Below, piece by piece: positions 1,550 through 61,305 of a stretch of 64,000 nt of DNA. The notes beneath the pieces were generated by a model. It saw only the letters and a program-made list of their open reading frames with translations. It ran no database searches and was not told the origin of the DNA. Positions within the stretch are counted from its first letter, which is position 1. Every line of letters begins with the position of its first letter. Location of the stretch: contig DAOTMV010000012.1 in NCBI GenBank assembly GCA_035450485.1, positions 38,882 to 102,881 of the forward strand. The letters run 5' to 3'. Made by a program: the position numbers and the translations under genes. Source of the DNA: Anaerohalosphaeraceae bacterium. GTDB taxonomy: Bacteria > Planctomycetota > Phycisphaerae > Sedimentisphaerales > Anaerohalosphaeraceae.

Positions 1550-3313
1550 TCATCCGTTGAAGTAGATATAGGCCGCCGCAATGATCACCAGAACGACAAC
1601 GGTAAAGAACAAATCCATGGTGGTCCAACTTGCACGTGATTGACGACGATCTTCGGCCGTAAGGGTTGCGTAGGTCAGGCCCTGAATCTTCTCATAGGTG
1701 GGCGCCGACGTCATATAGCTGACGACCATCATTACCGCGATACAGACCAGGAAAATCAACAGACTGTAGTATTGGAAGAACACGTTGTTGACGATCCACA
1801 GGAACGATCCCTCGGCATAGGTGAAACCGTGCTTGAGCTTTACGGGGGTATCGACCGCCAGTCTGAACAGACCCATTGCAAAACCGACCAACAGGGCCGC
1901 AAGGCAACCCTTTGCATTGACGCGCTTCACGAAGACGCCGAGGAAGAAGACCACGAAGATCGGCGGGGCAAGGTAGGCCTGGACGCCTTGGAGGTAGTCG
2001 TAAAGGCCTCTGCCGCCGCGGATTACGGGGATCCAGAGCAGGCCGATGAGCACCATGACCGCGGTGGCAACCCGGCCCATCCAGACCAACTGATGCTGCG
2101 AGGCGCCGGGGCGGAGTTTATCGTAAAAATCCATGGTAAAGAGGGTTGCGCAGGCGTTGAAGACGCCGGCCAAAGAACTCATAAGGGCGGCGAGCAGACC
2201 TGCGACGACGATGCCGCGGACGCCGGCCGGCAGGACATGGGTGACGAGCAGCGGAAAGGCTTGCTGACCTTCTGCACGGATGAGATTGCCTTGTTCGTCG
2301 AAGAGGGCCTCGGTCACAGCGGGCACGGCACCGCTCTTGGCCAGAGCAAAGGCAATAATGCCGGGGATAATGAAGATGAAAACCGGCAGCAGCTTGAAGA
2401 AGGCGGCACAGATCGAGCCGCGCCGGGCCTGGCGTTCATCGGGGGCGCCGAGAACGCGCTGGACGATGTACTGATCGGTGCACCAGTACCAGAGGCCGAC
2501 GATGGGGGCACAGAACAACATGCCGATCCAGGGATAATTGTCGTTGAAGTACCAGGCCATCCGGCCGGGTTCGCGGACCGGCGCCCATGTGCCTACGACA
2601 CCATCCGGCACGAGGGGTTTCCAAAGGTTGAACATCTCGGAGTCGACGGTCTCTCTGAGAACGCCCCAACCGCCGAGGGCTTTGAGACCGAAGATCGTGA
2701 CCAGGGCAGAGCCCACTACCAGGATGATCGTTTGAAGCGCCTCGGTATAGGCGACTGCCCGGAGGCCGCCGACGATGGTGTAGAGGCCGGTGAGGACGAT
2801 GACGAGGATGGAGCCGACCCAGAAGGCGTCAAGATCCACGAAGCCGAGGTTGAGATGCATCTCGGGAAACAGAGCGGCGAAGACGATGCCGCCAGCGAAG
2901 ATGCCTACGGCGATCTTGGTCAAAACATAGGCAACGAGCGAGATCAATGACAATATCCAGCGGCTCGAGGCGGAAAACCGTTTTTCGAGGAACTCGGGCA
3001 TGGTGAAGACCTCTGAGCGCATGTAAAAGGGCACGAAGACCCAGGCCAAAATGAGGAGGCACCATGCGTGAAGTTCATAATGGGCCATTGCCACGCCGTC
3101 GGTGGCGCCGGAGCCGGCCAGGCCAACGACGTGCTCGCTTCCGATGTTGCTGGCGAAGATAGAGGCACCGATGATGAACCAGCCAAGGTTGCGGCCCGCG
3201 AGGAAGTAGTCATCGGCCGTGTCCTTGGTCCGCAGGATCACCCATATTGCCAGACCGAAGAGGATGACGAAGTAGCCGGCTATAGCGATCCAGTCAATTA
3301 CCGAGAAGTCCAT
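1550..3313 (-). CDS. sodium:solute symporter (SSF/SGLT family) transporter
   Basis: 587 aa polytopic membrane protein. N-terminal DWIAIAGYFVILFGLAIW...YFLAGR motif is characteristic of the SSF family. Confidence 0.85.
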   Translation of the reverse strand: MDFSVIDWIAIAGYFVILFGLAIWVILRTKDTADDYFLAGRNLGWFIIGASIFASNIGSEHVVGLAGSGATDGVAMAHYELHAWCLLILAWVFVPFYMRSEVFTMPEFLEKRFSASSRWILSLISLVAYVLTKIAVGIFAGGIVFAALFPEMHLNLGFVDLDAFWVGSILVIVLTGLYTIVGGLRAVAYTEALQTIILVVGSALVTIFGLKALGGWGVLRETVDSEMFNLWKPLVPDGVVGTWAPVREPGRMAWYFNDNYPWIGMLFCAPIVGLWYWCTDQYIVQRVLGAPDERQARRGSICAAFFKLLPVFIFIIPGIIAFALAKSGAVPAVTEALFDEQGNLIRAEGQQAFPLLVTHVLPAGVRGIVVAGLLAALMSSLAGVFNACATLFTMDFYDKLRPGASQHQLVWMGRVATAVMVLIGLLWIPVIRGGRGLYDYLQGVQAYLAPPIFVVFFLGVFVKRVNAKGCLAALLVGFAMGLFRLAVDTPVKLKHGFTYAEGSFLWIVNNVFFQYYSLLIFLVCIAVMMVVSYMTSAPTYEKIQGLTYATLTAEDRRQSRASWTTMDLFFTVVVLVIIAAAYIYFNG

Positions 3314-3582
3314 AGAATTCCTTTCGTAGATGTTATGAGCATGAATACATTGATCGGGATTCTACCCTGACGATATCTGCAAAAGCGCACCCACCCTTGA
3401 CTTGCCGCCGAGATGGCGACGGAACGATTTGAGGCAACCAACGATCGAGCCTGTGCAACCCGTTCATTTTCAATCTTTTCCCTGGCGTTGAACTCGGCCA
3501 AACCACGTTTGCGGTATTCTGACCCGTACGAGCAGAAAATGCAAGCATTTTGTTGTTCCGATCACGGGTTATCCACCAAGGT

Positions 3583-4407
3583 CTACAGCAGGGATTTGAG
3601 GTATCTGATGCTTTTTTCGGCCTGTTCTATTGTTCCGCACTCCACGGACATGACGATGTCCCGAGGGGCTTTTTTGCAGATGGCGATGACGGCTTTCCAG
3701 TCGATGACGCCTTCGCCGCAGGCACAGCCTACGGGGGTTCCGGTGACCTTGCCTCGTTCGTCGGCGGACTGCTGCACGGAGATGTCTTTTGCATGGAGGT
3801 GGACGAGTCGGTCGGCGACGTGTTCAAGCCATTTGATGGGATCGGCGCCGCTGAGGTAGGCGTTGCCCGTGTCGAAGTTGATGCCGATGGCGGGCGAATC
3901 GACGAGGCTGCAGATACGGTCGAGGTTTTCGGGGGTCTTGCTGTACTGCTGGTGGGGTTCGAGGCCGATGAGGATGCCGCGGCGTTCGGCGAGTTTGGCG
4001 GCTTCGGTGAGGGTATACCTGATGAGGACGAAGTCTTCTTCTTCGGTGGTCCAGGGCTGCTTGGGGCCTTCGTCGGTGTTGACGACGGGTGCGGCGCATT
4101 CGGCGGCGTAGCGGACGGCCTGCTTGAGGTATTCGACGCCGATTTCGGGTTTGGTGAGGGGACAGTGAGCGGACAGGGCTGACATCTTGACGCCGGCGGC
4201 GTCGCAGGCATCCTTGAGACGGAGGGGATCGTCGAGCATGGAGACGCTGTGGAAGTATCCGGCTTCACTGAGGAGTTCACGGCCCCAGTGGACCATGGGC
4301 TCGACGTACTCGTAGCCGAGTTCGGCGGCCTTTTGGCAGGCGAACTCGAAGTTCTTGTCTTTGTAGCGGACGAATTCGTTGTTGACGCCGATGTAAACGT
4401 TTGCCAT
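3583..4407 (-). CDS. sugar phosphate isomerase/epimerase (xylose-isomerase-like TIM barrel)
   Basis: 274 aa. Pattern resembles the AP-endonuclease-2 / xylose-isomerase-like TIM barrel (…IGLEPHQ…, …INFDTGN…). Co-directional with the upstream symporter and oxidoreductase. Confidence 0.8.
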   Translation of the reverse strand: MANVYIGVNNEFVRYKDKNFEFACQKAAELGYEYVEPMVHWGRELLSEAGYFHSVSMLDDPLRLKDACDAAGVKMSALSAHCPLTKPEIGVEYLKQAVRYAAECAAPVVNTDEGPKQPWTTEEEDFVLIRYTLTEAAKLAERRGILIGLEPHQQYSKTPENLDRICSLVDSPAIGINFDTGNAYLSGADPIKWLEHVADRLVHLHAKDISVQQSADERGKVTGTPVGCACGEGVIDWKAVIAICKKAPRDIVMSVECGTIEQAEKSIRYLKSLL

Positions 4408-4425
4408 GTGAGTCTCCTTTCCGCT

Positions 4426-4638
4426 CTACTGTGACTGACTCATATCTATTATTCCAAAGGCGGCGAGGACGCCAAGGATGATGAGGCCTGCGCCGAGGAG
4501 GATGTAGAAGATGCGGGCCCCCGTGCGAGAGAGGAGGGTCACGAAGATGCGGTTCATAAACCATTCCCAGTCGCAGACGGCGCCGCAGATTGCAAAACCG
4601 CCAGACAGCACAAACAGCCATCCCAAGAGTTGAGTCAT
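4426..4638 (-). CDS. small two-TM membrane protein, unknown function
   Basis: 70 aa, two hydrophobic helices. 18-nt gap to the upstream isomerase gene, so probably co-transcribed. Confidence 0.4.
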   Translation of the reverse strand: MTQLLGWLFVLSGGFAICGAVCDWEWFMNRIFVTLLSRTGARIFYILLGAGLIILGVLAAFGIIDMSQSQ

Positions 4639-5046
4639 AGGTCGCCTCCTTACTTTGACTTATCCGTTATTCTCCAGTTGTCCCGATTTGTCACTTGCAG
4701 TCATTGTCTGTACCGGGCGCCGATGGGGGCGGCTTCGATCCTGTCGCGGCCGCAGCGGCAGATGACGATGCTTCATCGTTATCTTTTCTCCTTCTGTCTG
4801 CGTGGGGATTTTACCGACGCCGGCGTCATTGTATCCGGACAGTGAGGCCGGTTCAAAGCAAAAATGGCTCCAATGCCGAGGCACGTGAGAGTCGTCATGC
4901 TGCGGCGGGCGGCTATCGGCAAGACCTGCAAATCAGGCTTCGCTTCAGGGGCCGGCTCCCCCTGCCGGCCCCCCTACCGCCCCCCTGCCAACATATTATT
5001 TCCGGGGAGCTGCTCCCTGCAAAAATGGGCCTAATTGGGCAGAGGA

Positions 5047-37019: not shown

Positions 37020-38888
37020 TTATGCGGACGGTTGGGCATCGGTGGTCTGTGCCTGGGGATTGTCGTCTTTGGGCTGTTCCTCGGCGACTTGCAGGCTGGT
37101 TGAGACTGTGGACGGCACAGATGCACCTGAACTTGCGGCGTGATCGTCGAAGACGCGCCAGGCGGGGGCCAGCAGTTCCGGCACTTCCCAGGCACTGCCG
37201 CAGTGGTGGCATTTCTCCATGTCCGGCCTGCGCCCCCTGCCGCAATTGGCACAGGTTACAAGCGTGTGCGTCGGGCGCGTAAACCGCCATGTCAGGAAGG
37301 CGGGCAAACCGAATGTCAGGATGGCGGCCGTCCAATACTTTATTGACCGATCCGAAAGTCCGATTGTCCGCGCCTGGCGCCTGACGGCCATCGTCAGCAC
37401 CGCGGCGATCAGCAGCGACGGCGACATCGTCATGGCAAGGACGGCGAGGCGCTGGAAGCGATCCTCCTGGTACTTACGGCCCAGCGAGCCGGCAAACGAA
37501 TGCGGCAGGAGCAGCAGATTGCGCTGCCCCTTCTCGGGGGAAATATACGGCGCCGTGAAGTAAGAGGCTACGCTGAATACGGGGGGCTGAAGGTTTTCCA
37601 GCAAGTATCTTAGACCCGTCAGTGCGGGTCCCCCGGGCATCTCGAAATAGGTATTGATTGTCCTTGCCCGGGCCACTGTATCGTCATCCAGCGGACCACC
37701 GGCTCTTGCACCACTGCCCCCAGGTAGTTGCTTGCCGTACCCCGTGTCCGCCTCTGCGTCAGATAGATCGCGGACTCTTGGCCCGTTTTCGCGTTCGAAG
37801 CGGCGACGTACACGTGTGGCCATGGTCATGTCGGATGCGACCATTTCGCCGTCGGCATCGAAGACGGCAACCGTTGCGCCGGTGCCATCGGGCGACAGGG
37901 TCGCGACAAGGGCGCCAAGATAGGTGTTGTTCGGGTCAAAGCTGACGGACACGGCAATCCAGGCCGGCAGGTCGTAGGGCCGGGCCATCTCATCTCGCGA
38001 CATTGCGAATTCGGGCGCCGTCGGCAGATACCCGGTCTGTCCGGCCCATTGAAGCGTTTGGCGGTTGAGCTTGTGAAGGCGGCCGGCGTTATCGAGCACC
38101 AGCACGTATTCGCCGGCATTTATGGACAGCGGCACAGCAGGTATAAAATTGCCCGGGACAATCTCGTCTTGGCGCGTTCGGCGCTCTTGCTCAGTGGCTT
38201 CCCTGAGGGGCGGGGTCCACTGCATGGACAGTAGATTCGGGTTCTTGCTGATTCGACCGGCGGCCACAGGGGCGCCCATTTCGGCCAGCGACTCAGCAGG
38301 CGCTTCCACGACCTGCCGTGCGGCGAGATTGACACGGAAGAGCCTGCGCAGCTTCGTGTCAAGAATGATCAGGTCCTCTTTGCCGTCGAAAACCGCCCTG
38401 GGCTCCACAAAGCGGCCTGTCTCATCGCTGTCGATTACCGAGATGCCCTCCGGTCCGACAAACAACTGCGGCTCATTGATCCACAAACCGTTCGACTCGC
38501 CGTCTTCATCTTCTTCCTGGTAGATCTTGCACTGCACGATCTTACCGATGGCCGGGTCGAAGTACGTGTACAGCCTCTTTTCGTCTTCAAGGGGTTGCAC
38601 GCCAATCAGCCACAGATCCGTATGTTCGTTCAGAGGCACTGTCTCCTCAGGATGCACATCGACCATGACTCGGGATGGAACCACAACGGCAGGCTGGGTC
38701 TCGAGGGACAGAGGAAGAAGACCACAGGGCTGCACCTGGGCCCGACGGTTGGCCAAGGGGGTAATTCCGCCGAGAACCGACTTGCATGCGAAACGGGCCC
38801 AGTACAGAACAAGGCTCAGCAGCAGCGTGACGATGACACCCACGGTTACAACATGGACCAGATAGCTTCGCAAGGTATTCATGAGCAT
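37020..38888 (-). CDS. large membrane protein with C-terminal TM bundle and zinc-ribbon (last gene of GntR-ABC operon)
   Basis: 622 aa. N-terminal TM helix, ~450-aa extracytoplasmic/soluble region, C-terminal TM helices, and a CANCGRG…CHHCGS C-x2-C…C-x2-C motif. No family recognised. Confidence 0.5.
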   Translation of the reverse strand: MLMNTLRSYLVHVVTVGVIVTLLLSLVLYWARFACKSVLGGITPLANRRAQVQPCGLLPLSLETQPAVVVPSRVMVDVHPEETVPLNEHTDLWLIGVQPLEDEKRLYTYFDPAIGKIVQCKIYQEEDEDGESNGLWINEPQLFVGPEGISVIDSDETGRFVEPRAVFDGKEDLIILDTKLRRLFRVNLAARQVVEAPAESLAEMGAPVAAGRISKNPNLLSMQWTPPLREATEQERRTRQDEIVPGNFIPAVPLSINAGEYVLVLDNAGRLHKLNRQTLQWAGQTGYLPTAPEFAMSRDEMARPYDLPAWIAVSVSFDPNNTYLGALVATLSPDGTGATVAVFDADGEMVASDMTMATRVRRRFERENGPRVRDLSDAEADTGYGKQLPGGSGARAGGPLDDDTVARARTINTYFEMPGGPALTGLRYLLENLQPPVFSVASYFTAPYISPEKGQRNLLLLPHSFAGSLGRKYQEDRFQRLAVLAMTMSPSLLIAAVLTMAVRRQARTIGLSDRSIKYWTAAILTFGLPAFLTWRFTRPTHTLVTCANCGRGRRPDMEKCHHCGSAWEVPELLAPAWRVFDDHAASSGASVPSTVSTSLQVAEEQPKDDNPQAQTTDAQPSA

Positions 38889-38892
38889 TTCC

Positions 38893-39522
38893 TTAAAGAG
38901 GCGTTGAGATGAAATGCTGTCGACTGCGGATCAGCGATACCGCCGTAACCAAGACCAGAATGACGGCCGTTTCCATGCCTGAGCCTTTGAGGATAACGAG
39001 TGGAATGAGAATCAAGGCCAAGGTCGTGCCACCCAACACCGGGACAACCCTGCCCGGGGCCCAGCCGGTCAACAGTCCCAGACTGTAGGAGGCCAGGCTC
39101 AAAAGGAGAACCGTCCGAACACCTGCCACGAACATGGCCTGGTACAGGGGGATCGGCGGCATGACAACCTTCAGAATGATTATCCACGCAGCGGTCACCG
39201 GCAGAAGCGTCATCACGATCAGCAGCACGCCCGTGATCACGCGGGCCGTAAAGATTGCGCTTCGGGTCACGGCCAATGTCGACAGAAAACAGGAGATGCG
39301 GCGCGTTTTGTCCATATACATCTGTTTGGCTCCCATGCCGCTGAATAACACCATTGCCCAGACGAGCATGGGGAGTATTGGCCAGCCAGACATGCTCTTC
39401 GAACTGAGGCCGCCCGAGTATACGTTGGAGATCACGAACACGATTATGCTTATGGTATATGCTGCACCGGTGATAAAAAAGGCGCGACTGTCATCGATTT
39501 CACGCTTGATCAGTGTCCACAT
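38893..39522 (-). CDS. ABC-2-type transporter permease
   Basis: 209 aa, ~6 TM helices. Directly follows the ABC ATPase with a 14-nt gap. Confidence 0.6.
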   Translation of the reverse strand: MWTLIKREIDDSRAFFITGAAYTISIIVFVISNVYSGGLSSKSMSGWPILPMLVWAMVLFSGMGAKQMYMDKTRRISCFLSTLAVTRSAIFTARVITGVLLIVMTLLPVTAAWIIILKVVMPPIPLYQAMFVAGVRTVLLLSLASYSLGLLTGWAPGRVVPVLGGTTLALILIPLVILKGSGMETAVILVLVTAVSLIRSRQHFISTPL

Positions 39523-39536
39523 GGTCGTCTCCTTAT

Positions 39537-40439
39537 TTACACGGCCGTCGGCATTCGGACGGGATTAGTGCACTCAATGAACAGATCTTCCAATGTCATC
39601 GGGATTTCCGCGACGTGCTGCGGACGGAAGGCTTCCACCACGGCCCGCTTGGCGGCATCCCAGTTGGCCACGGTAATGATCACTTCAGTACCGGAACGCT
39701 GCTGCCGGATGATGCCGGTCAGCGGCAGGTCGTCAGGGGGGCTCTCGGCGAAGATGATCTGCACCTTGCAGATCCGCCGCTTGAGTTCTTCCAGGGAGCA
39801 GTCGACCACCAGTTTGCCGCCGGCGAGGATACCGATGCGGTCAGCGATTCGTTCGACGTCGCTGAGGATATGCGAGCTGAAGAGGATTGTTCGGCCGTCC
39901 CGCTGTATCACATCGATGGCCAGTGCAAGGAATTGCCACCGTGCGACGGTATCGAGCCCAAGTGTGGGATCATCGAGGATAAGCACCTCCGGGTCGATGG
40001 CCATGGCCAGGGCCAGGTTGAGCTGAGCCCGCATGCCGGTTGACAGTTCGCGGACCCGGCGTTCCATGGGCAGGCGGAAGGTTTCGTTGAGCTTGTCGAA
40101 AAAGGGCTGGTTCCACTGGCATGACAACCTGCGGCATAGTCTCACGAGATGGCCCACGCGGTAATGCTGCAGGAGGTGGTGTCCTTCCGCCACGTAGCCG
40201 ATGCGCCCCCGCGTCCGGGCGTCAAGCTGCATCGATTCAGTCCCCAGGACGAAGGTCCGGCCGCGGCTGGCCGGCTCCTGTCCGAGGAGGATGCGGATGA
40301 GCGTGGTCTTTCCGATGCCGTTGCGGCCGAGCAGCCCGTAGATGCAGCCGCGTCGAACCTGCAGGCTGACGCCGTCCAGAACGCAGCGGCCGCCGTAGTA
40401 CTTCACCAGATCCCTGACTTCGATCGCGATGTCACTCAT
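39537..40439 (-). CDS. ABC transporter ATP-binding protein
   Basis: Walker A GRNGIGKTT, signature LSTGMRAQ, Walker B ILDDP. 8-nt overlap with the gntR stop. Confidence 0.85.
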   Translation of the reverse strand: MSDIAIEVRDLVKYYGGRCVLDGVSLQVRRGCIYGLLGRNGIGKTTLIRILLGQEPASRGRTFVLGTESMQLDARTRGRIGYVAEGHHLLQHYRVGHLVRLCRRLSCQWNQPFFDKLNETFRLPMERRVRELSTGMRAQLNLALAMAIDPEVLILDDPTLGLDTVARWQFLALAIDVIQRDGRTILFSSHILSDVERIADRIGILAGGKLVVDCSLEELKRRICKVQIIFAESPPDDLPLTGIIRQQRSGTEVIITVANWDAAKRAVVEAFRPQHVAEIPMTLEDLFIECTNPVRMPTAV

Positions 40440-40836
40440 CGGTCTGCCCTTTCCCGTCGAATCTGAATTTTTTCAGCGTGTTTTCGAACCACTCCCGCAG
40501 GGTTTCACTGTCGATCTGCATGTGGATCGCCTCGACTACCAGGAGTTCCAACTGCTCGTGCAGGATGCGGCGGCGAACCGCGCGGCTCAAATTGCTTGAC
40601 AACTCCGCCACAAAGGCCCCCGCCCCGGGCCGTGTGACGATGATACCGTCCTGTTCGAGCTGACGATAGGCCTTGGCAATGGTGTTGGGATTGATGACCA
40701 GGGCGGCCGACAGTTCGCGAACGGTCGGCAGGCGCTGGCCCGTTTTGAGCCGTCCCATGGCGATATCCCGCTTGACCTGGTCGATAATCTGCTGGTAGAC
40801 GGCCCTCTCGGAGCCGTGATCGATGGTAATCTGCAT
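40432..40836 (-). CDS. GntR-family (YtrA-like) transcriptional regulator
   Basis: 134 aa. N-terminal winged-HTH RLPTVRELSAALVINPNTIAKAYRQLEQDGII, with the short C-terminal domain typical of the YtrA subfamily. First gene of the operon. Confidence 0.85.
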   Translation of the reverse strand: MQITIDHGSERAVYQQIIDQVKRDIAMGRLKTGQRLPTVRELSAALVINPNTIAKAYRQLEQDGIIVTRPGAGAFVAELSSNLSRAVRRRILHEQLELLVVEAIHMQIDSETLREWFENTLKKFRFDGKGQTDE

Positions 40837-40869: not shown

Positions 40870-40896
40870 ACTTGTACTATGGCATCTATTACAAGT
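40870..40896. promoter_or_regulatory. inverted repeat ACTTGTA-N13-TACAAGT; candidate GntR/YtrA operator
   Basis: Perfect 7-bp inverted repeat ~35 nt upstream of the gntR start, in the divergent intergenic region. YtrA-type regulators usually bind GT..AC-containing palindromes in their own promoters. Confidence 0.35.
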
Positions 40897-40985: not shown

Positions 40986-41013
40986 TTGCCAATGGCTGCC
41001 AGGCCGCTATAAT
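40986..41013 (+). promoter_or_regulatory. sigma70-like promoter TTGCCA-16-TATAAT for DUF3592 operon
   Basis: Near-consensus -35 and a perfect -10 with 16-nt spacer, ~50 nt upstream of the ATG at 41069. Confidence 0.45.
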
Positions 41014-41068: not shown

Positions 41069-42337
41069 ATGAAATTCCACATAAGATCAGGTCGTCGCAA
41101 CGACTTGCGTGTCGGATCCCGCCACGCACGGCCTCTCTCTTCGAGAGCGGCAAGCGGCAAGAGAGCCAAAGCCGCCGCGTTCATCGTCTTCGGTATGTTC
41201 ACCGTGTTCGGCTTTGCGTTCTCGTATTTCTTTCTGGTCCGACCGGTGAAGAACCTCATTGCCGCCCGCTCCTGGGTCGAGACGCCGTGCACGATTCTCA
41301 GCGCCAACGTGAAGTCGCACAGCAGCAGCGACGGTACAACGTACAGCGTGGACATCACTTACGAGTACCGGTTCGGCAACCGGACGTATACGTCGGACCG
41401 CTACAATTTCATGGGAGGCTCATCCAGCGGCCGTTCCGGCAAGCAGGAAGTGGTTGACCGGTACCGCAAGGCCAAGAACCCCGTCTGCTACGTCGACCCG
41501 CACAACCCGCAGTCCGCCGTGCTCGTACGCAAGGTTCAGCCGGTCATGCTCTGGGGACTGTTTCCTGTGATTTTCATTCTCGTGGGTGTCGCCGGCGTCA
41601 CAGCCACTTTGCGAGGGCGACGGAAGCCCGTCTCGGCGAGCGCCGGCAAAGATACCGCCGCCGACTGGCTGCCGGAGACAAGAACCGCCGTGCCGGGCAA
41701 CGTTTATGCCGCGCCGATCGCCGCGGGTGGCCCGGTTGTCCTGAAAGCCAAACATTCGCGGGCTTCCAAGGTGGTCTTTCTGGTCATCTTTGCCGTCCTC
41801 TGGAACGGCATCGTCTCGATCCCTGTCACCCAGGTCGTCAAGAGCTTTCAACGAGGCCGTCCCGAGTGGGGACTGACCCTTTTCATCTCCATCTTTGTGC
41901 TCGTTGGCTTGGCCGTCATCGTGGCCGTCGTGCACCAATTTCTCGCAATGTTCAATCCAAAGACGCAGTTGACGCTGAATTCTGCCAGCATTCCTTTAGG
42001 CGGCGCGGGGTATCTCAAGTGGGAGATTCTCGGCGCGGTCAATCGGATCAGCGAACTCATCATCACGCTGACGGCCCGCGAGGAATGCAGGTACCGGCGC
42101 GGGACCAAGACCTATACCGACAAGAACACGTTCTTCACCTTTGAGATCGCCCGCACGACGGAGCCTGTGCAAATGGCGTTCGGGGAGATTGCCTTCGCGA
42201 TTCCCTCCGACACCATGCATTCGTTCGAGGCGACGAACAACAAGATCATCTGGTCGCTGCACGTCAAAGGCGACATCAAGCGCTGGCCCGATCTGGACGA
42301 CCAGTTCGACATCACGATCACCCCGGCGGAATCATGA
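41069..42337 (+). CDS. membrane protein with two DUF3592-like domains
   Basis: ATG at 41069 (MKFHIRSG…); upstream ORF codons are rejected. The pattern TM helix – ~100-aa β-rich domain (…TYTSDRYNF…NPVCYVDPHNP…) – TM helix occurs twice, as in the DUF3592 fold. Confidence 0.6.
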   Translation: MKFHIRSGRRNDLRVGSRHARPLSSRAASGKRAKAAAFIVFGMFTVFGFAFSYFFLVRPVKNLIAARSWVETPCTILSANVKSHSSSDGTTYSVDITYEYRFGNRTYTSDRYNFMGGSSSGRSGKQEVVDRYRKAKNPVCYVDPHNPQSAVLVRKVQPVMLWGLFPVIFILVGVAGVTATLRGRRKPVSASAGKDTAADWLPETRTAVPGNVYAAPIAAGGPVVLKAKHSRASKVVFLVIFAVLWNGIVSIPVTQVVKSFQRGRPEWGLTLFISIFVLVGLAVIVAVVHQFLAMFNPKTQLTLNSASIPLGGAGYLKWEILGAVNRISELIITLTAREECRYRRGTKTYTDKNTFFTFEIARTTEPVQMAFGEIAFAIPSDTMHSFEATNNKIIWSLHVKGDIKRWPDLDDQFDITITPAES

Positions 42338-42717
42338 GCATGAGTGAAATCGAGATACGAACCGACAACGACGTCACCCGTCTTGCCCCCGGTGAGATAC
42401 TTGCAGGCAGTGTCCGCTGGAACCTGCTCGAGCCGCCGCGATCGATCGACCTGCGCCTGATGTGGTATACCCAGGGCAAAGGCGACGGCGATGTCGGCGT
42501 CGTTGATTCAATCACGTTCGACAATCCCGCACAGTATGAGACCCGAAGGTTTCAGTTTCAGCTACCCAATGGCCCGTACAGTTTCAGCGGCAAGCTGATT
42601 GCCCTCATCTGGGCCCTCGAAGCAGTTGTCCAGCCGCGCGATCGATTCGAGCGGCTCGAGATCGTGGTGTCACCCACCCGCCGGGAAATCGCCCTGCTTG
42701 CCCCGCAACCCCAATGA
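42334..42717 (+). CDS. hypothetical 127-aa protein (translationally coupled)
   Basis: Start overlaps the upstream stop as ATGA. β-rich; no family recognised. Confidence 0.45.
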   Translation: MSMSEIEIRTDNDVTRLAPGEILAGSVRWNLLEPPRSIDLRLMWYTQGKGDGDVGVVDSITFDNPAQYETRRFQFQLPNGPYSFSGKLIALIWALEAVVQPRDRFERLEIVVSPTRREIALLAPQPQ

Positions 42718-43280
42718 CAACGGCACGGCACAACCCCTTTGCCATGCACCGTATCCATTCTATACGGTACATGCCCCAGACGTGTACGTGGCCGGAGTTG
42801 CTTGAACGCTTGCGCACGATGGAATACCGCGGCGCAATCGTCGGGCCGGAAGGTTCCGGCAAGACGACGCTCCTTGAAGACCTCGGCCGGCACCTTGCTG
42901 AGGAAGGCCGCACCTGCCGGAGTATCTTCATTACGCTGGACGTAAAGGTTCCTCCGAGGGAGATCCGTGCCGCGGTCAACGCAGCGGATTACGACGTTCT
43001 TCTGATCGATGGGGCCGATCACCTCCACCCGCTTGTCTTCGGCATTATCAAGCACAAGACCGCTCGCGGCCGAAAGGGCCTGGTTATCACCTCGCACAGG
43101 CCCAACCTGCTGCCCACGCTCATCGAATGCCACACCAGCCCGGACCTCTTTGGCCAAATTGTCGAGACCCTCGCTCCCAGCGGTGACTGCCCCGAGAATA
43201 TCGCCGCGGTTTATCATAAACACAAGGGCAACATCCGGGATGCTCTGCGGGAACTCTATGATCTGACCGCATTGAAATAA
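42714..43280 (+). CDS. small P-loop NTPase
   Basis: Walker A GPEGSGKTT, Walker B-like VLLIDGADH, then LVITSH (sensor-like). 188 aa. Start overlaps the upstream stop (ATGA). Confidence 0.6.
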   Translation: MTTARHNPFAMHRIHSIRYMPQTCTWPELLERLRTMEYRGAIVGPEGSGKTTLLEDLGRHLAEEGRTCRSIFITLDVKVPPREIRAAVNAADYDVLLIDGADHLHPLVFGIIKHKTARGRKGLVITSHRPNLLPTLIECHTSPDLFGQIVETLAPSGDCPENIAAVYHKHKGNIRDALRELYDLTALK

Positions 43281-43602: not shown

Positions 43603-44289
43603 ATGGGTCTTTTCAAACGCATCCACAGAATCACCGTTGGCCGCATTGAAACCTTCCTCGACCGCGCCGAAGATCCCGAGGTCATCTTCCCGGTGCTCAT
43701 CCAGGAGATGGAAAAGCAGCTTAAGGCGGCGACCGAAGCCGAGGCCAAGGCGTCGGCTGCGGTGAAGGCCGCCCAGCGCGACCTGAAGCGGCAGCAGGAG
43801 AAGGTCGACCGGTTCGGCAAAGGCGCGGCGCAATCGCTTAAGAAAGGCGACGAGGAGACGGCCCGCATGTCGATCGAGGCGCAGATCGAGGCGGAAAAGA
43901 ACCTTGCCGTGGCGCAGCAGAACGTCGATTCGGCGACGGACTCGCTGGACCACGCCAATGCGGCGCGTCGCCGCATCCAGCAGCAGCTTGATGAGCTTCG
44001 CACGCGCAAAGAAGACATCCTCACACGGGCCCGTGTCGCCAAGGCGCAAAAGAAGATTCAGCGGACCGTCAGCGGCTCGGCGGGCTCTACCGACAGCATC
44101 CTCGATGCGGTCGCACGGCTGGAGGCGGGCGTGGAACAGGCCGAGGCGGAGTTGGAAATCCAGGCCAGTTTGACGGGCACCTCCAACGGCAGCCCTTCGC
44201 TGGAAAAATGCCTGCGTGATCTGGACCACGACAGCGAAGTCGAGGCCCGCCTGTCGCAGATTCGCCTGTCGATCGCGGAGAGCGCCTGA
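43603..44289 (+). CDS. PspA/IM30 (Vipp1/ESCRT-III-like) family protein, paralog 1
   Basis: ATG at 43603 with an AGAAAGGAG RBS. MGLFKRIHRITVGRIETFLDRAEDPEVI… is the canonical PspA N-terminus. 228 aa coiled coil. Confidence 0.8.
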   Translation: MGLFKRIHRITVGRIETFLDRAEDPEVIFPVLIQEMEKQLKAATEAEAKASAAVKAAQRDLKRQQEKVDRFGKGAAQSLKKGDEETARMSIEAQIEAEKNLAVAQQNVDSATDSLDHANAARRRIQQQLDELRTRKEDILTRARVAKAQKKIQRTVSGSAGSTDSILDAVARLEAGVEQAEAELEIQASLTGTSNGSPSLEKCLRDLDHDSEVEARLSQIRLSIAESA

Positions 44290-44334: not shown

Positions 44335-45012
44335 ATGTCCATATTCGAACGCATACAGCGCATCGCCAAGGCGAACGTCAACTGGCTGCTTGACAAGGCC
44401 GAGCCCGCCGAGCAGGAACTGGCCTCCAAGATCAAGGAACTCGAAGAGACGCTTCTCGAAGGACGCGAAAGCGCGGCGACCTATGGCGCGACGTTCCGTC
44501 GGCTCGAAACCGAAATGCAGCAGCTCCAGCAGAAACAGGCCGACCTGACCGCGCAGGCCGAGACGGCGCTCAAGGCCGGAGACGAGACAGCTGCGCGGAA
44601 GGCGCTCGCCGAAAAAGTGCGATTAGCCGAACGGATCGCCCAGATGAAGCCCGGCCTGGACCGCGGCCGGCAGACCTTCGAGATGCTGCGTGACAACATG
44701 ATCAAGCTGCAGGAACAGCTTAAGGCCGCCAAGCTGAAATTCGAGGACCTTAAGGCCCGCAAACGGACCGCCGAGGCCCAGAAGGCCTTTGACAAGCACC
44801 TCAGCCGGGCCGTGGCCTTCAATCCGGACGGCGTCACCTTCGACCGACTCGAAGACCAGGTCCTCCAGTCCGAGGCCGAGGTGCAGATCAACCAGGAACT
44901 CCGCGGCGATTCGCTCACCGAGATCGAACTGGCCCAGAGAGCCCGCGACATGCAGGTCGAAGCGGAACTGGCGGAACTCAGAGAACGCCTCAACCAGGGC
45001 AAAGCCGGATAA
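44335..45012 (+). CDS. PspA/IM30 family protein, paralog 2
   Basis: MSIFERIQRIAKANVNWLLDKAEPAEQEL…, 225 aa. GAGAGGAG RBS. Confidence 0.8.
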   Translation: MSIFERIQRIAKANVNWLLDKAEPAEQELASKIKELEETLLEGRESAATYGATFRRLETEMQQLQQKQADLTAQAETALKAGDETAARKALAEKVRLAERIAQMKPGLDRGRQTFEMLRDNMIKLQEQLKAAKLKFEDLKARKRTAEAQKAFDKHLSRAVAFNPDGVTFDRLEDQVLQSEAEVQINQELRGDSLTEIELAQRARDMQVEAELAELRERLNQGKAG

Positions 45013-45024
45013 GGAGAACCTCCC

Positions 45025-45666
45025 GTGGAACTTCTGCACATGTCCCTGATGCCCGCCAACATTGGCGCGACCGTCTTTCTTGCGATGATACTCGCTTACT
45101 GGCTCACGGTCCTCCTCGGTGCGCTCGATCTGGACTTCCTTGATTTCGATCTTGACGCCGACGTCGACGCCGATCTCGGCAGCGATCTGGATGTCTCCGT
45201 CGGCGTCTTCGACGGCATGCTTGCCTTTTTCTATCTGGGCAAGATCCCACTCATGATCCTCTTGAGCATATTCGCACTCTGCCTCTGGGTCATCTCGATA
45301 ATCGCCAACGGCTATCTCAATCCTTCGGGTTCGCTCGCCCTGGGCTTGCCCCTGGCTGTTGGCAACCTGATCGTTTCGCCGTTCATCTGCAAGGTGATCT
45401 GTGCACCTTTAGCGAGGTTCTTCATGGCTTTGAAAAAAGATCCCAATGCCCCGGCGGACGTTATGGGCCGCATTTGCAGAGTAACCACCTCCCAGGTGTC
45501 TGCGAAAATGGGGCAGGCGGAGGTCTCCACCAGCGGGGCCCCGATACTGCTGAATGTTGTTGCCGACGGCGATCATGTCTTCAAAAAGGGAGACGAAGCC
45601 GTCGTCATCGGAAAAGATGAGAAGAAGGGCGTGCACATCATTGCACCGGTAAATCTGGAGGACTGA
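45025..45666 (+). CDS. YqiJ/NfeD-like membrane protein (OB-fold C-terminal domain)
   Basis: Two TM segments separated by an acidic D/L repeat loop. The C-terminal ~70 aa (…GRICRVTTSQ…GQAEV…DEAVVIGKDEKKGVHIIAPV) has an NfeD-like β-barrel pattern. Sits immediately upstream of the flotillin, as in yqiJK. Start codon is GTG. Confidence 0.6.
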   Translation: MELLHMSLMPANIGATVFLAMILAYWLTVLLGALDLDFLDFDLDADVDADLGSDLDVSVGVFDGMLAFFYLGKIPLMILLSIFALCLWVISIIANGYLNPSGSLALGLPLAVGNLIVSPFICKVICAPLARFFMALKKDPNAPADVMGRICRVTTSQVSAKMGQAEVSTSGAPILLNVVADGDHVFKKGDEAVVIGKDEKKGVHIIAPVNLED

Positions 45667-45668
45667 AC

Positions 45669-47663
45669 ATGTTGGCAGCGGTTCCGTTTGAGCAGTTGAT
45701 TGTGACTTGCGGCATTATTGTTGGTGGTATATTCTTCATCGCTCTCCTACTGTTTGCCAAATGCTGGCGCAAAGTCGCACAGGGTCAGGCACTAATCCGC
45801 AATGGCCTGTGGGGAACACAGGTCAGCTTCTCTGGCAAAATGGTTTTCCCCGTCCTGCACCGCGTCGAGTACATGGACATCTCCGTCAAGCGGATCGAGA
45901 TCGACCGCGGCGGCGCCTCGGGCCTTATCTGCAAGGACAACCTGCGTGCGGACATCAAGGTGGCGTTCTTCGTGCGCGTCAACAATACGGCCGAGGACGT
46001 CAAGAAGGTCGCTCAGGCCTTGGGCTGTATGCGGGCCAGCGACGAACGGGCGCTCTATGAACTCTTCGACGCCAAGTTTTCAGAGGCGCTCAAGACGATC
46101 GGCAAGAAATTCGATTTTGCGGAACTGTACGTCGAACGCGTCAGGTTCAAAGAGGAGATACTGCAGATCATCGGCACGGACCTCAACGGCTACATCCTCG
46201 AAGACGCCGCCATCGACTACCTGGAGCAGACCGACAAGAAGCTGCTCAGCCCCGACAACATCCTCGATGCCGAGGGCATCAAGAAGATCACGGTCCTGAC
46301 GGCCGAGCAATTCGAGCTGGCCAACGCCCGCGAGCGCGAAAAGGACATGACGATCACCAAGCAGAATGTCGAGGCCCAGGAGGCGATCCTCGAACTTAAT
46401 CGCCAGTTGGCCGAGGCGGATGCCAAGCAGAAACGCGAAGTCGCCTCCGTGCAGGCCCGCGAAGAAGCCGAGACCAAGCGCATCCAGGCGCAGGAACGCG
46501 AAAAGGCCGAGAAGGCCCGCATCGTCGCCGACGAAGAGATTGCCGTCGCCGAAGAGAACAAGCTGCGTCAGATCATCGTCGCCGCCAAGAACAAGGAGCG
46601 CACCGAGGCCGTTGAGATCGAACGGGTCGAGCGCGACCGGGGCCTGGAGGCCACCGAGCGCGAGCGGCTGGTCACCATCGCCCAGGTCGAAAAGGACAAG
46701 GTGGTCGAGGGCCAGAGGAAGGAACTGCAGGCGGCCATTCGTGAACGGGTCACTGTCGAGAAGACGGTGGTGAAGGAAGAAGAGAACATCAAGGACACCC
46801 GCGCCTTCGCGGGGGCCGACCGACAGAAAAAGGTCGCCATTACGCAGGCCGAGGAGCAGGCCGAGCAGGCCCTGGTCAAGGACATTAAGGCCGCCGAAGC
46901 CAGCAAGAAGGCCGCCGAGTTCTACGCCGAGCAGCAGATCATCGAGGCCCAGGCCAATCTCGACGCCGCCAGCCGCAACGCCGAGGCCAAGAAGACCATC
47001 GCCGCCGCCGAGGTCAAGGAACATGCCGTTGCGGGCATTGCCGAAGCGGAAGTCATGGAGGCAAAGGCGGCGGCCATCGAGAAACAGGGTACCGCCGAAG
47101 CAAAGGTCATGGAACTGAAGTACCACGCCGAGGCCGACGGGATTCGCGACAAGGCCGAAGCGATGAAGATCTTCGATGCGGTCGGCAAGGAGCACGAAGA
47201 GTTCAAGATCCGCATCAACAAAGACAAGGAAGTGGAACTGGCAAGCATCAACGTACAGAAGGACATTGCAGCCGAACAGGCAAAGATCGTGGCCGAGGCC
47301 CTCAAGAGCGCCCGCATCGACATCGTCGGCGGCGACAACAACTTCTTCAATCGGCTGGTCAACTCCATCACAACCGGCAAGGCCGTGGACCGTATGATCG
47401 AAAACAGCGATGCGCTGACCGGCCTCAAGAACACGCTGTTGGGCGGCGACGCGGAACTGAACCGTGAGAACATCCGCCGCTTCATCGATCAGTTTGGCCT
47501 GTCGGCGGAGGATATCAAGAACCTCTCCGTCAGTGCCCTGGTCGTCAAGCTCATGGCCGACGCCGACGAAGGCAGGAAGGGCCTGCTCAGCCGCATCCTG
47601 CACGCGGCCAAGGAAATAGGCATCGCCGATATGCCGGCGGAAAAACTCCTGGCGGAAAAGTAA
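45669..47663 (+). CDS. flotillin / SPFH (band-7) family protein, YqiK-like
   Basis: 664 aa. N-terminal TM helix, an SPFH domain, and a very long Ala/Glu/Lys-rich coiled coil (the flotillin EA-repeat region). GGAGGA RBS. Confidence 0.85.
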   Translation: MLAAVPFEQLIVTCGIIVGGIFFIALLLFAKCWRKVAQGQALIRNGLWGTQVSFSGKMVFPVLHRVEYMDISVKRIEIDRGGASGLICKDNLRADIKVAFFVRVNNTAEDVKKVAQALGCMRASDERALYELFDAKFSEALKTIGKKFDFAELYVERVRFKEEILQIIGTDLNGYILEDAAIDYLEQTDKKLLSPDNILDAEGIKKITVLTAEQFELANAREREKDMTITKQNVEAQEAILELNRQLAEADAKQKREVASVQAREEAETKRIQAQEREKAEKARIVADEEIAVAEENKLRQIIVAAKNKERTEAVEIERVERDRGLEATERERLVTIAQVEKDKVVEGQRKELQAAIRERVTVEKTVVKEEENIKDTRAFAGADRQKKVAITQAEEQAEQALVKDIKAAEASKKAAEFYAEQQIIEAQANLDAASRNAEAKKTIAAAEVKEHAVAGIAEAEVMEAKAAAIEKQGTAEAKVMELKYHAEADGIRDKAEAMKIFDAVGKEHEEFKIRINKDKEVELASINVQKDIAAEQAKIVAEALKSARIDIVGGDNNFFNRLVNSITTGKAVDRMIENSDALTGLKNTLLGGDAELNRENIRRFIDQFGLSAEDIKNLSVSALVVKLMADADEGRKGLLSRILHAAKEIGIADMPAEKLLAEK

Positions 47664-61202: not shown

Positions 61203-61250
61203 TACGCCCGGCAGGATTCGAACCTGCGACCTTCGGTTTAGGAAACCGAC
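61203..61250 (-). tRNA. truncated tRNA-Arg(CCU) 3' fragment (anticodon stem to discriminator), attachment-site repeat
   Basis: Minus-strand sense: G-TCGGT-TTCCTAA-ACCGA-AGGTC-GCAGG-TTCGAAT-CCTGC-CGGGCGT-A. This gives the anticodon arm (U33, anticodon CCU, A37), variable loop, T-arm with a canonical TTCGAAT loop and the 3' acceptor strand. No matching 5' acceptor strand or D-arm is present upstream, where AT-rich DNA begins. Confidence 0.7.
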
Positions 61251-61305
61251 AACATAATTACATAAAATCTTTACAGTAAATAACTTATGGATTTCTCTGT
61301 TTTTA

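Follow-up and report, generated by a model that had tools for sequence, protein, structure and literature searches.

What does a set of three genes do together when both of its junctions consist of overlapping stop and start codons? The question is raised by a locus in an Anaerohalosphaeraceae bacterium (Planctomycetota), on contig DAOTMV010000012.1, of which we analyzed a stretch of 64,000 nucleotides (positions 38,882 to 102,881 of the forward strand), referred to here as “the window”. The locus encodes a membrane protein, a small β-rich protein, and a small P-loop NTPase, in three open reading frames (ORFs) that we call ORF1, ORF2, and ORF3, or collectively “the trio”. The key feature of the locus, missed in the original prediction made from its sequence, is that ORF2 and the C-terminus of ORF1 are each, as modeled, one arrestin-like lobe. 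Here, we describe the evidence that the trio is a conserved unit, the predicted architecture of its products, and possible mechanisms. Within the window, the three genes are located as follows:

41069–42337, + strand: ORF1, 422 aa (ORF call; 100%-identical database protein)
42334–42717, + strand: ORF2, 127 aa (ORF call)
42714–43280, + strand: ORF3, 188 aa (ORF call)

The trio is a conserved unit

The ORF calls and the letters of the sequence bear out the predicted gene structure, with ATGA stop/start overlaps at 42334–42337 (ORF1/ORF2) and 42714–42717 (ORF2/ORF3). The start of ORF1 at 41069 is backed by a database protein (P0241) that is 422 aa long, 100% identical, and annotated as [quoted passage not shown]. 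The gene calls are the same in several public contigs from the species of the window.

The ORF2 family is large. An exhaustive profile search recovered 2147 clusters at 50% identity (E ≤ 1e-3), and a pattern scan limited to one genome for each species detected ORF2 in 420 species, mostly Planctomycetota (Phycisphaerae, Pirellulales), Verrucomicrobiota, and Acidobacteriota (Thermoanaerobaculia, Blastocatellia, Holophagales), but also in Sumerlaeia. Relatives of ORF3 with a length of ~190 aa number more than 900. Linkage was counted at 80 species loci from the scan, seeded with ORF2. Of 68 loci that could be assessed, 66 have an ORF1 homolog directly upstream of ORF2, and an ORF3 homolog lies directly downstream in 62 of 77; in the other loci, the NTPase gene is 1.2–1.7 kb away (4 loci) or absent (11 loci). 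Close spacing is also found in other species, where junctions overlap or are ≤20 nucleotides (nt) apart for 62/66 ORF1–ORF2 pairs and 56/61 ORF2–ORF3 pairs. As a family trait, overlapping junctions are far beyond chance. Look-ups seeded with the NTPase instead of ORF2 found an ORF2 homolog directly upstream in 6/6 cases and ORF1 in 5/6 (locus L092 is without it), with differing flanks. In two Holophagales loci (L053 and L048), the gene order is ORF2-ORF1-ORF3, with linkage retained. The original prediction that the three genes are a tightly coupled unit is therefore well founded, given their co-conservation and tight junctions. A check set beforehand asked whether the genes are co-conserved and whether the NTPase is a housekeeping enzyme; they are co-conserved, and ORF3 is not a known housekeeping enzyme, judging by Pfam and NCBIfam searches. 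That the three are unrelated neighbors overlapping by accident is next to impossible, since they are found together in at least three phyla, where their flanks differ, their order can be permuted, and some of them are fused (see below).

All-vs-all clustering of the flanking ORFs at 83 loci revealed no fourth conserved neighbor. The only synteny beyond the trio is local to particular lineages, e.g., a Thermoanaerobaculia cluster ~4 kb from the trio. At one of the loci most closely related to that of the window (L001; 62% identity), ORF1 is immediately preceded, at 2077–4210 on the + strand, by genes encoding a Ser/Thr protein kinase and a PP2C phosphatase. These neighbors are of interest given that arrestins read phosphorylated tails and that the predicted cytoplasmic linker of ORF1 (see below) is disordered and contains Ser and Thr residues. 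However, only 4 of the 83 loci share a cluster that includes the L001 ORF overlapping the kinase gene.

Some individual loci are unusual in other respects. One Acidobacteriota metagenome-assembled genome (MAG; MFD02581.bin.2.147) has the trio on two separate contigs (L032 and L039), one copy on each, so some genomes may hold two copies. In four cases (L022, L043, L026, and L042), the trio is found in MAGs labeled “uncultured Clostridia”, “Bifidobacterium sp.”, or “Syntrophaceae”; these out-of-line labels probably reflect mislabeled bins, not the true hosts. In L090 (1826–4004, + strand), ORF1 is split into calls of 310 aa and 190 aa ahead of ORF2 and the NTPase, probably due to a frameshift in a long-read assembly.

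ORF2 resembles a single arrestin lobe

The original description of ORF2 as β-rich agrees with its structural model, which is all-β, with seven strands and a predicted local distance difference test (pLDDT) score of 88.6. When this model was compared with the Protein Data Bank (PDB) using Foldseek, the first 42 matches were all arrestin-clan chains, with a best E-value of 8.9e-8. The structure-search scores were similar for several branches of the clan, i.e., 11.9 for Vps26, 11.8 for Spo0M, 11.7 for ARRDC3, and 11.1 for β-arrestin, and TXNIP and Rgp1 were also among the top structural matches. As modeled, then, ORF2 is a soluble single arrestin-like lobe, which we refer to as “lobe B”.

At the level of sequence, the similarity is faint. 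ORF2 has two invariant motifs, PYSFSG and W-x-T-x-GKG-x-x-D, and had no match in Pfam (E ≤ 0.1), NCBIfam, or PADLOC. Searching PDB sequences with an ORF2 profile placed the TXNIP N-domain at the top (E = 0.16), with the α-arrestin motif LPxGPxxSFxGK aligned to the invariant PYSFSG. Among 25 ORF2 relatives, Arrestin_N was the commonest sub-threshold Pfam match (3/25, best E = 0.016). No Pfam model of the arrestin clan (Arrestin_N/C, Vps26, Spo0M) matched at threshold, either for the proteins of the window or for these 25 relatives. Because the Pfam arrestin models fail at the sequence level, we do not file the lobes of the trio in an existing family; they are arrestin-like in fold and outside existing arrestin families by sequence.

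ORF1 carries a second lobe on a membrane anchor

The structure of ORF1 was modeled with AlphaFold2 from 41 homologs (pLDDT 81.9). In the model, ORF1 is a four-transmembrane (TM) protein with a single DUF3592 domain and a C-terminal arrestin-like lobe, “lobe A”. From N- to C-terminus, its parts are as follows:

41156–41269, + strand: TM helix 1, aa 30–67, preceded by an Arg/Lys-rich N-tail (AlphaFold2 model)
41282–41533, + strand: DUF3592 β-domain, aa 72–155, between TM1 and TM2 (Pfam PF12158, 53.7 bits against a cutoff of 25.3)
41540–41623, + strand: TM helix 2, aa 158–185 (AlphaFold2 model)
41624–41758, + strand: linker, aa 186–230, predicted cytoplasmic, ending in a conserved GPVVLK (low AlphaFold2 confidence, conservation)
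41759–41947, + strand: TM hairpin of helices 3 (aa 231–261) and 4 (aa 267–293) (AlphaFold2 model)
41960–42322, + strand: C-terminal β-sandwich, lobe A, aa 298–418, joined directly to TM4 (AlphaFold2 model, pLDDT >90)

ORF1 had been thought to contain two DUF3592 β-domains, and the second of these does not stand. Pfam detects one stretch only (aa 72–155), and aligning the C-terminal β-domain with the DUF3592 domain by hhalign gave no match (E = 0.47 over 4 columns). The fold of the C-terminal domain is instead arrestin-like, with Vps26, ARRDC3, TXNIP, arrestin, Rgp1, and Spo0M as the top matches in the structure search. Two DUF3592 domains are found in many longer ORF1 relatives of ~575 aa, where both lie N-terminal to the C-terminal lobe; each additional N-terminal DUF3592 unit is expected to add two TM helices.

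For both lobes, the nearest structural matches are the N-lobes of α-arrestins (ARRDC3, TXNIP, ARRD-6) and Vps26. A profile of the ORF1 C-terminal domain found no match among PDB sequences. Two hhalign comparisons of lobes A and B as possible sequence paralogs disagreed: with ~60 sequences, the two were colinear over 101 columns with E = 0.008, and with 16 versus 25 sequences, E was 0.64. According to the models, the window thus encodes two separate single arrestin-like lobes, one tethered to the membrane and the other soluble.

The orientation of ORF1 can be predicted from several features. Eight Lys and Arg residues fall within aa 1–29, and by the positive-inside rule this N-tail is predicted to be cytoplasmic. 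The DUF3592 domain has a pair of cysteines, C74 and C140, that is invariant in the 41 homologs and fits the expectation for an extracytoplasmic disulfide. Because of the Lys/Arg-rich N-tail, the even number of TM helices, and the invariant cysteine pair, we infer that the DUF3592 domain is periplasmic and that the linker and lobe A are cytoplasmic. A cytoplasmic lobe A fits the likely location of ORF2 and ORF3, both of which we place in the cytoplasm because neither N-terminus reads as signal peptide-like. Model confidence within the linker differs sharply between its two parts, with pLDDT <50 over aa 185–218 and ~91 over aa 221–230. The confident part includes the GPVVLK segment, where L225 is invariant and residues 223–225 form a predicted strand. 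The linker is also Ser/Thr-containing and disordered.

Fused relatives suggest that the two lobes pair

In some lineages, the two lobes are found in one chain. In a Tepidisphaeraceae locus (L083), ORF1 and ORF2 are joined in a single protein of 570 aa by a Pro/Ala-rich linker of ~30 aa, and the NTPase gene follows. An extra stand-alone protein of 193 aa, with a DUF3592 domain between two TM helices, is encoded after the NTPase in this locus (4083–4664, + strand). ORF1–ORF2 fusions are found in at least six more cluster representatives (P0390, P0393, P0397, P0436, P0462, and P0471), and the further fusions include both single- and double-DUF3592 types. L091 likewise has an ORF1–ORF2 fusion followed by the NTPase. 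In such a chain, the lobes follow one another as N-lobe and C-lobe, as they do in arrestins and Vps26. One candidate fusion of ORF2 to the NTPase (P0494, 313 aa) was not counted; its last ORF2 strand is replaced by out-of-frame-looking sequence, probably due to an assembly frameshift. Since ORF1–ORF2 fusions recur in other lineages, lobes A and B most likely pair as a split, membrane-tethered, two-lobed arrestin.

Partial versions of the locus are also informative. ORF1 and ORF2 are found without the NTPase in 11/77 loci, and in L092, ORF2 is accompanied by the NTPase but has no ORF1 beside it. Because ORF2 can be found with either partner in the absence of the other, we consider ORF2 to be the common partner, or hub. 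No ORF2 residues stood out as specific to loci with a linked NTPase.

ORF3 is probably a minimal AAA+/STAND-type NTPase

As originally described, ORF3 contains a P-loop. From its sequence, it appears to be a minimal AAA+/STAND-type P-loop core plus a helical lid. Conservation was judged across 30 relatives, with the following elements:

42843–42869, + strand: Walker A motif GPEGSGKTT, aa 44–52 (G44, G47, G49, K50, T51, and T52 invariant)
42996–43019, + strand: Walker B motif VLLIDGAD, aa 95–102, of the form hhhhDGxD/E (D99 and G100 invariant)
43227–43262, + strand: GNIRDALRELYD, aa 172–183, a sensor-2-like arginine motif in the C-terminal helical lid (G172, N173, R175, R179, and Y182 invariant)

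The form of the Walker B motif is NACHT/STAND-like. It is followed by a TSHRP strand with an invariant His. The lid segment has the invariant pattern GNxRxxLRxLYD, and we liken its GNxRxA-type arginine motif to box VIII of replication factor C (RFC; GDxRxA), an equivalence that we assume; ORF3 ends ~5 residues past this motif. At the other end of the protein, an N-terminal extension, A-x-x-NPF...RY, is invariant and family-specific.

Database matches are suggestive of the same broad group. Pfam AAA_22 scored 30.1 bits against a cutoff of 27, covering only profile positions 8–55 of 130, and matches to nSTAND5, NACHT, and AAA_16 were below their Pfam cutoffs. The same models recur among the 30 relatives: AAA_22 in 26, AAA_16 in 20, nSTAND_NTPase5 in 18, and NACHT in 14. 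Searching PDB sequences with an ORF3 profile aligned RFC small subunits over positions 41–184 (E = 2e-4); a profile of the C-terminal half gave only spurious matches (designed helical repeats, eL19).

ORF3 shares Walker A, the hhhhDGxD/E Walker B, the post-Walker-B strand, and the lid arginine motif with STAND proteins, ORC-Cdc6-type AAA+ proteins, and clamp-loader small subunits. In contrast to these, it is only ~190 aa long, has its own NPF...RY extension, and lacks a winged helix, a TPR/WD40/LRR sensor, and an effector. Winged-helix, repeat, and effector modules define STAND proteins, and the 188-aa chain of ORF3 contains no winged helix, repeat sensor, or effector domain. We also recognized no SRC-type arginine finger in its sequence. 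A sensor or adaptor for ORF3 would come in trans, from ORF1 and ORF2.

Possible mechanisms

What, then, does the trio do? We think the chances are somewhat better than even that its products form one membrane-associated complex, a transmembrane adaptor or switch that is chromosomal and not a mobile defense element. ORF1 would cross the inner membrane four times, with the DUF3592 domain and its conserved cysteine pair on the periplasmic side, and lobe A, attached directly to TM4, would sit at the cytoplasmic face. Lobe B would pair with lobe A, forming a two-lobed, arrestin/Vps26-type clamshell against the membrane. The ORF3 ATPase would dock on this platform of lobes, with ORF2 as the hub, and may act as a nucleotide-dependent switch for assembly, oligomerization, or client release. 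In this way, the unit could connect an input from the periplasm or the envelope with an adaptor in the cytoplasm. As an adaptor or signaling module, it would be chromosomal and vertically inherited.

The original prediction noted a resemblance to small signaling or defense modules. A signaling module that combines a membrane sensor with an NTPase is reasonable; the resemblance to defense modules, by contrast, is unsupported by defense-family searches, viral and plasmid searches, flanking genes, or base composition. ORF1 and ORF2 match 0 families in PADLOC-DB 2.0, and the matches of ORF3 there do not extend beyond the Walker A region (best E-value 2.5e-4). No relatives of the trio were found in 2.9 million viral contigs or in 72,556 plasmids. 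The flanks of trio loci vary, and where gene calls were read they are largely housekeeping; GC content is uniform across the region of the window, at 0.58–0.60. All of this weighs against an anti-phage or conflict module in which a STAND-like NTPase senses infection via the membrane protein and triggers abortive infection. Such a module is suggested by the weak similarity of ORF3 to the P-loops of nSTAND5, NACHT, AriA, and PtuA, and by a compact operon of unknown function, but the trio has no toxic effector domain, the family is spread over Planctomycetota, Verrucomicrobiota, and Acidobacteriota, and the trio stays intact instead of diversifying. We consider a role in defense very improbable.

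A second possibility is that ORF1 is accessory to an unlinked membrane enzyme or transporter, and that the arrestin lobes and the ATPase regulate this enzyme rather than signal. In the literature that we searched, a single hint at the function of a DUF3592 protein was found, and it is of this kind: ML2271 is part of a predicted MptB-LpqW-ML0614-ML2271 complex, with correlated phenotypes, MptB being a mycobacterial mannosyltransferase. ML2271 is only a distant DUF3592 relative of ORF1, and while housekeeping and envelope genes (e.g., SpoIID, a CDP-OH transferase, and a glycosyltransferase) are among the flanks read, no linked enzyme gene is conserved in the 83 loci. The lack of an effector domain in the trio itself would also suit an enzyme cofactor. 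This explanation, which we regard as possible but on the unlikely side, overlaps with a membrane-associated adaptor or switch more than it excludes one.

By analogy with eukaryotic arrestins, the split arrestin could also be an adaptor for membrane-protein turnover, picking out proteins of the inner membrane to be removed or passed to a protease, with the ATPase driving release or extraction. α-Arrestins (ARTs) bind the tails of transporters and recruit Rsp5, and the closest structural matches of the two lobes (the N-lobes of ARRDC3, TXNIP, and ARRD-6, and Vps26) are all membrane-cargo adaptors. Lobe A is flush with the membrane in the AlphaFold2 model, as such an adaptor would be. The analogy comes from fold only, however, and other expected features are missing: reading the ORF1 and ORF2 sequences revealed no PPxY-type motif, the 83 loci contain no linked protease or ligase, and the sequence of the 188-aa ATPase core gives no sign of a pore-loop or of a domain that would engage substrates. 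A turnover adaptor therefore seems doubtful, and we continue to favor a membrane-associated adaptor or switch.

Control sequences and neighboring genes

The region upstream of the trio contains two sequences that may be involved in control of transcription:

40986–41013, + strand: promoter-like TTGCCA-16 nt-TATAAT, 55 nt upstream of the ORF1 start (consensus scan, 11/12; pattern match only)
40870–40896, no strand assigned: palindrome ACTTGTACTA-7 nt-TATTACAAGT with 10-nt arms, in the intergenic region between the trio and gntR (inverted-repeat search)

The first of these is the strong consensus promoter originally proposed for the trio; it agrees with the consensus at 11 of 12 positions and is a pattern match only. 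The palindrome is ~90 nt upstream of the −35 element of the trio and overlaps a promoter-like site on the minus strand, 40921–40894, found ahead of gntR by the consensus scan. Because of this overlap with the predicted gntR promoter, the palindrome looks like the operator of the GntR protein itself, likely acting on the neighboring gntR promoter, and not like a control element of the trio.

The genes on either side of the trio in the window are as follows:

37020–40836, − strand: divergent operon encoding a GntR regulator of 134 aa (YtrA-like in size), then an ATP-binding cassette (ABC) ATPase whose C-terminal domain is DrrA-like, a multi-TM protein of 209 aa, and a protein of 622 aa that has TM segments and weakly matches a zinc ribbon
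43603–44289 and 44335–45012, + strand: two PspA/IM30 paralogs, directly after the trio
45025–45666, + strand: YqiJ_N-like membrane protein (Pfam scan)
45669–47663, + strand: 664-aa protein with an N-terminal TM helix, long charged helical regions, and no Pfam match

The divergent arrangement described originally, i.e., gntR followed by the ABC ATPase gene, with a palindrome in the shared intergenic region, is present, and a functional tie to the trio is not supported. Only in the window’s own species does the trio have the GntR-ABC operon and, downstream, the PspA genes as neighbors, and GntR/ABC neighbors are absent from trio loci of other lineages, as judged from the NTPase look-ups and from clustering of flanks at the 83 loci. 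We therefore rejected the GntR-ABC operon as a partner of the trio and regard it as an unrelated neighbor. The PspA/IM30-YqiJ_N-like stretch downstream may be a membrane-stress or remodeling cluster, and it too is not conserved beside the trio elsewhere. In contigs of the same species, the gene for the 664-aa protein is followed by one for a DUF3686/DUF7902/AAA protein of ~1800 aa. Further along the window, 61208–61276 (− strand) has a marginal Rfam match to tRNA, with 30.2 bits against a gathering threshold of 29 over model positions 5–66 of 71; it was not called by ARAGORN and may be a tRNA-like element that is degenerate or atypical.

Relation to known systems and significance

The trio can be compared with several known families. 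ORF2 and the C-terminal domain of ORF1 share their β-sandwich fold with the arrestin clan (CL0135: Arrestin_N/C, Vps26, and Spo0M; also Rgp1, TXNIP, and ARRDC). Unlike arrestins, the lobes of the trio are split over two genes, and lobe A is covalently part of a four-TM DUF3592 protein; both lobes share a single polypeptide not in the window but in fused relatives (L083, P0390, P0393, P0397, and others). Spo0M, the known bacterial member of the clan, is a soluble single chain reported from Firmicutes, Actinobacteria, Cyanobacteria, and Proteobacteria (PMC2515105), whereas the trio comprises two lobe-bearing chains, one of them membrane-bound, in other phyla. With DUF3592 (PF12158) proteins, ORF1 shares the match at aa 72–155 and the TM helices on either side of it; the TM hairpin, the arrestin-like C-lobe, and the obligate partner ORF2 lie beyond the Pfam match, which covers only aa 72–155. 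We know of no arrestin-clan protein with a mini AAA+/STAND ATPase as its partner. Another parallel is Ric1-Rgp1, a guanine nucleotide exchange factor for Rab6, in which Rgp1 is the arrestin-fold subunit. There, as proposed for the trio, a P-loop NTPase and a protein with an arrestin fold act together at a membrane, and the structure searches returned Rgp1 among their best matches. The parallel is one of analogy only, and the NTPase of the trio is of the AAA+/STAND type and not a Ras-like GTPase.

Full-text literature searches returned no description of the trio, of a DUF3592-anchored arrestin lobe, of a stand-alone half-arrestin partner, or of their ATPase, and the few papers that mention DUF3592 assign it no function. 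The trio brings to light a large family, with 2147 clusters at 50% identity and ~420 species genomes, that has neither a Pfam model nor a source-given name. Its likely architecture is an arrestin-like clamshell whose halves are divided between a membrane protein and a soluble partner, with genetic ties to a minimal AAA+/STAND ATPase. Arrestin-fold proteins are central adaptors for membrane cargo and receptors in eukaryotes, and the bacterial arrestin relatives described in the papers that we found are the poorly understood Spo0M proteins. The trio offers a bacterial test system for the role of the arrestin fold at a prokaryotic membrane. It also bears on what DUF3592 domains sense, and the coexistence of split and fused forms bears on the origin of two-lobed arrestins.

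More speculatively, and with the odds clearly against it, the trio could represent a two-lobed arrestin system that is widespread in bacteria, occurring in the Planctomycetota-Verrucomicrobiota-Chlamydiota (PVC) phyla, Acidobacteriota, and others, mostly with separate and sometimes with fused lobes, anchored by a membrane sensor and run by a dedicated ATPase, i.e., a prokaryotic counterpart of the eukaryotic arrestin/Vps26 cargo adaptors. If this were true, the trio would possibly be the closest extant model for the origin of arrestin/Vps26 adaptors, in phyla debated for their eukaryote-like membrane biology.

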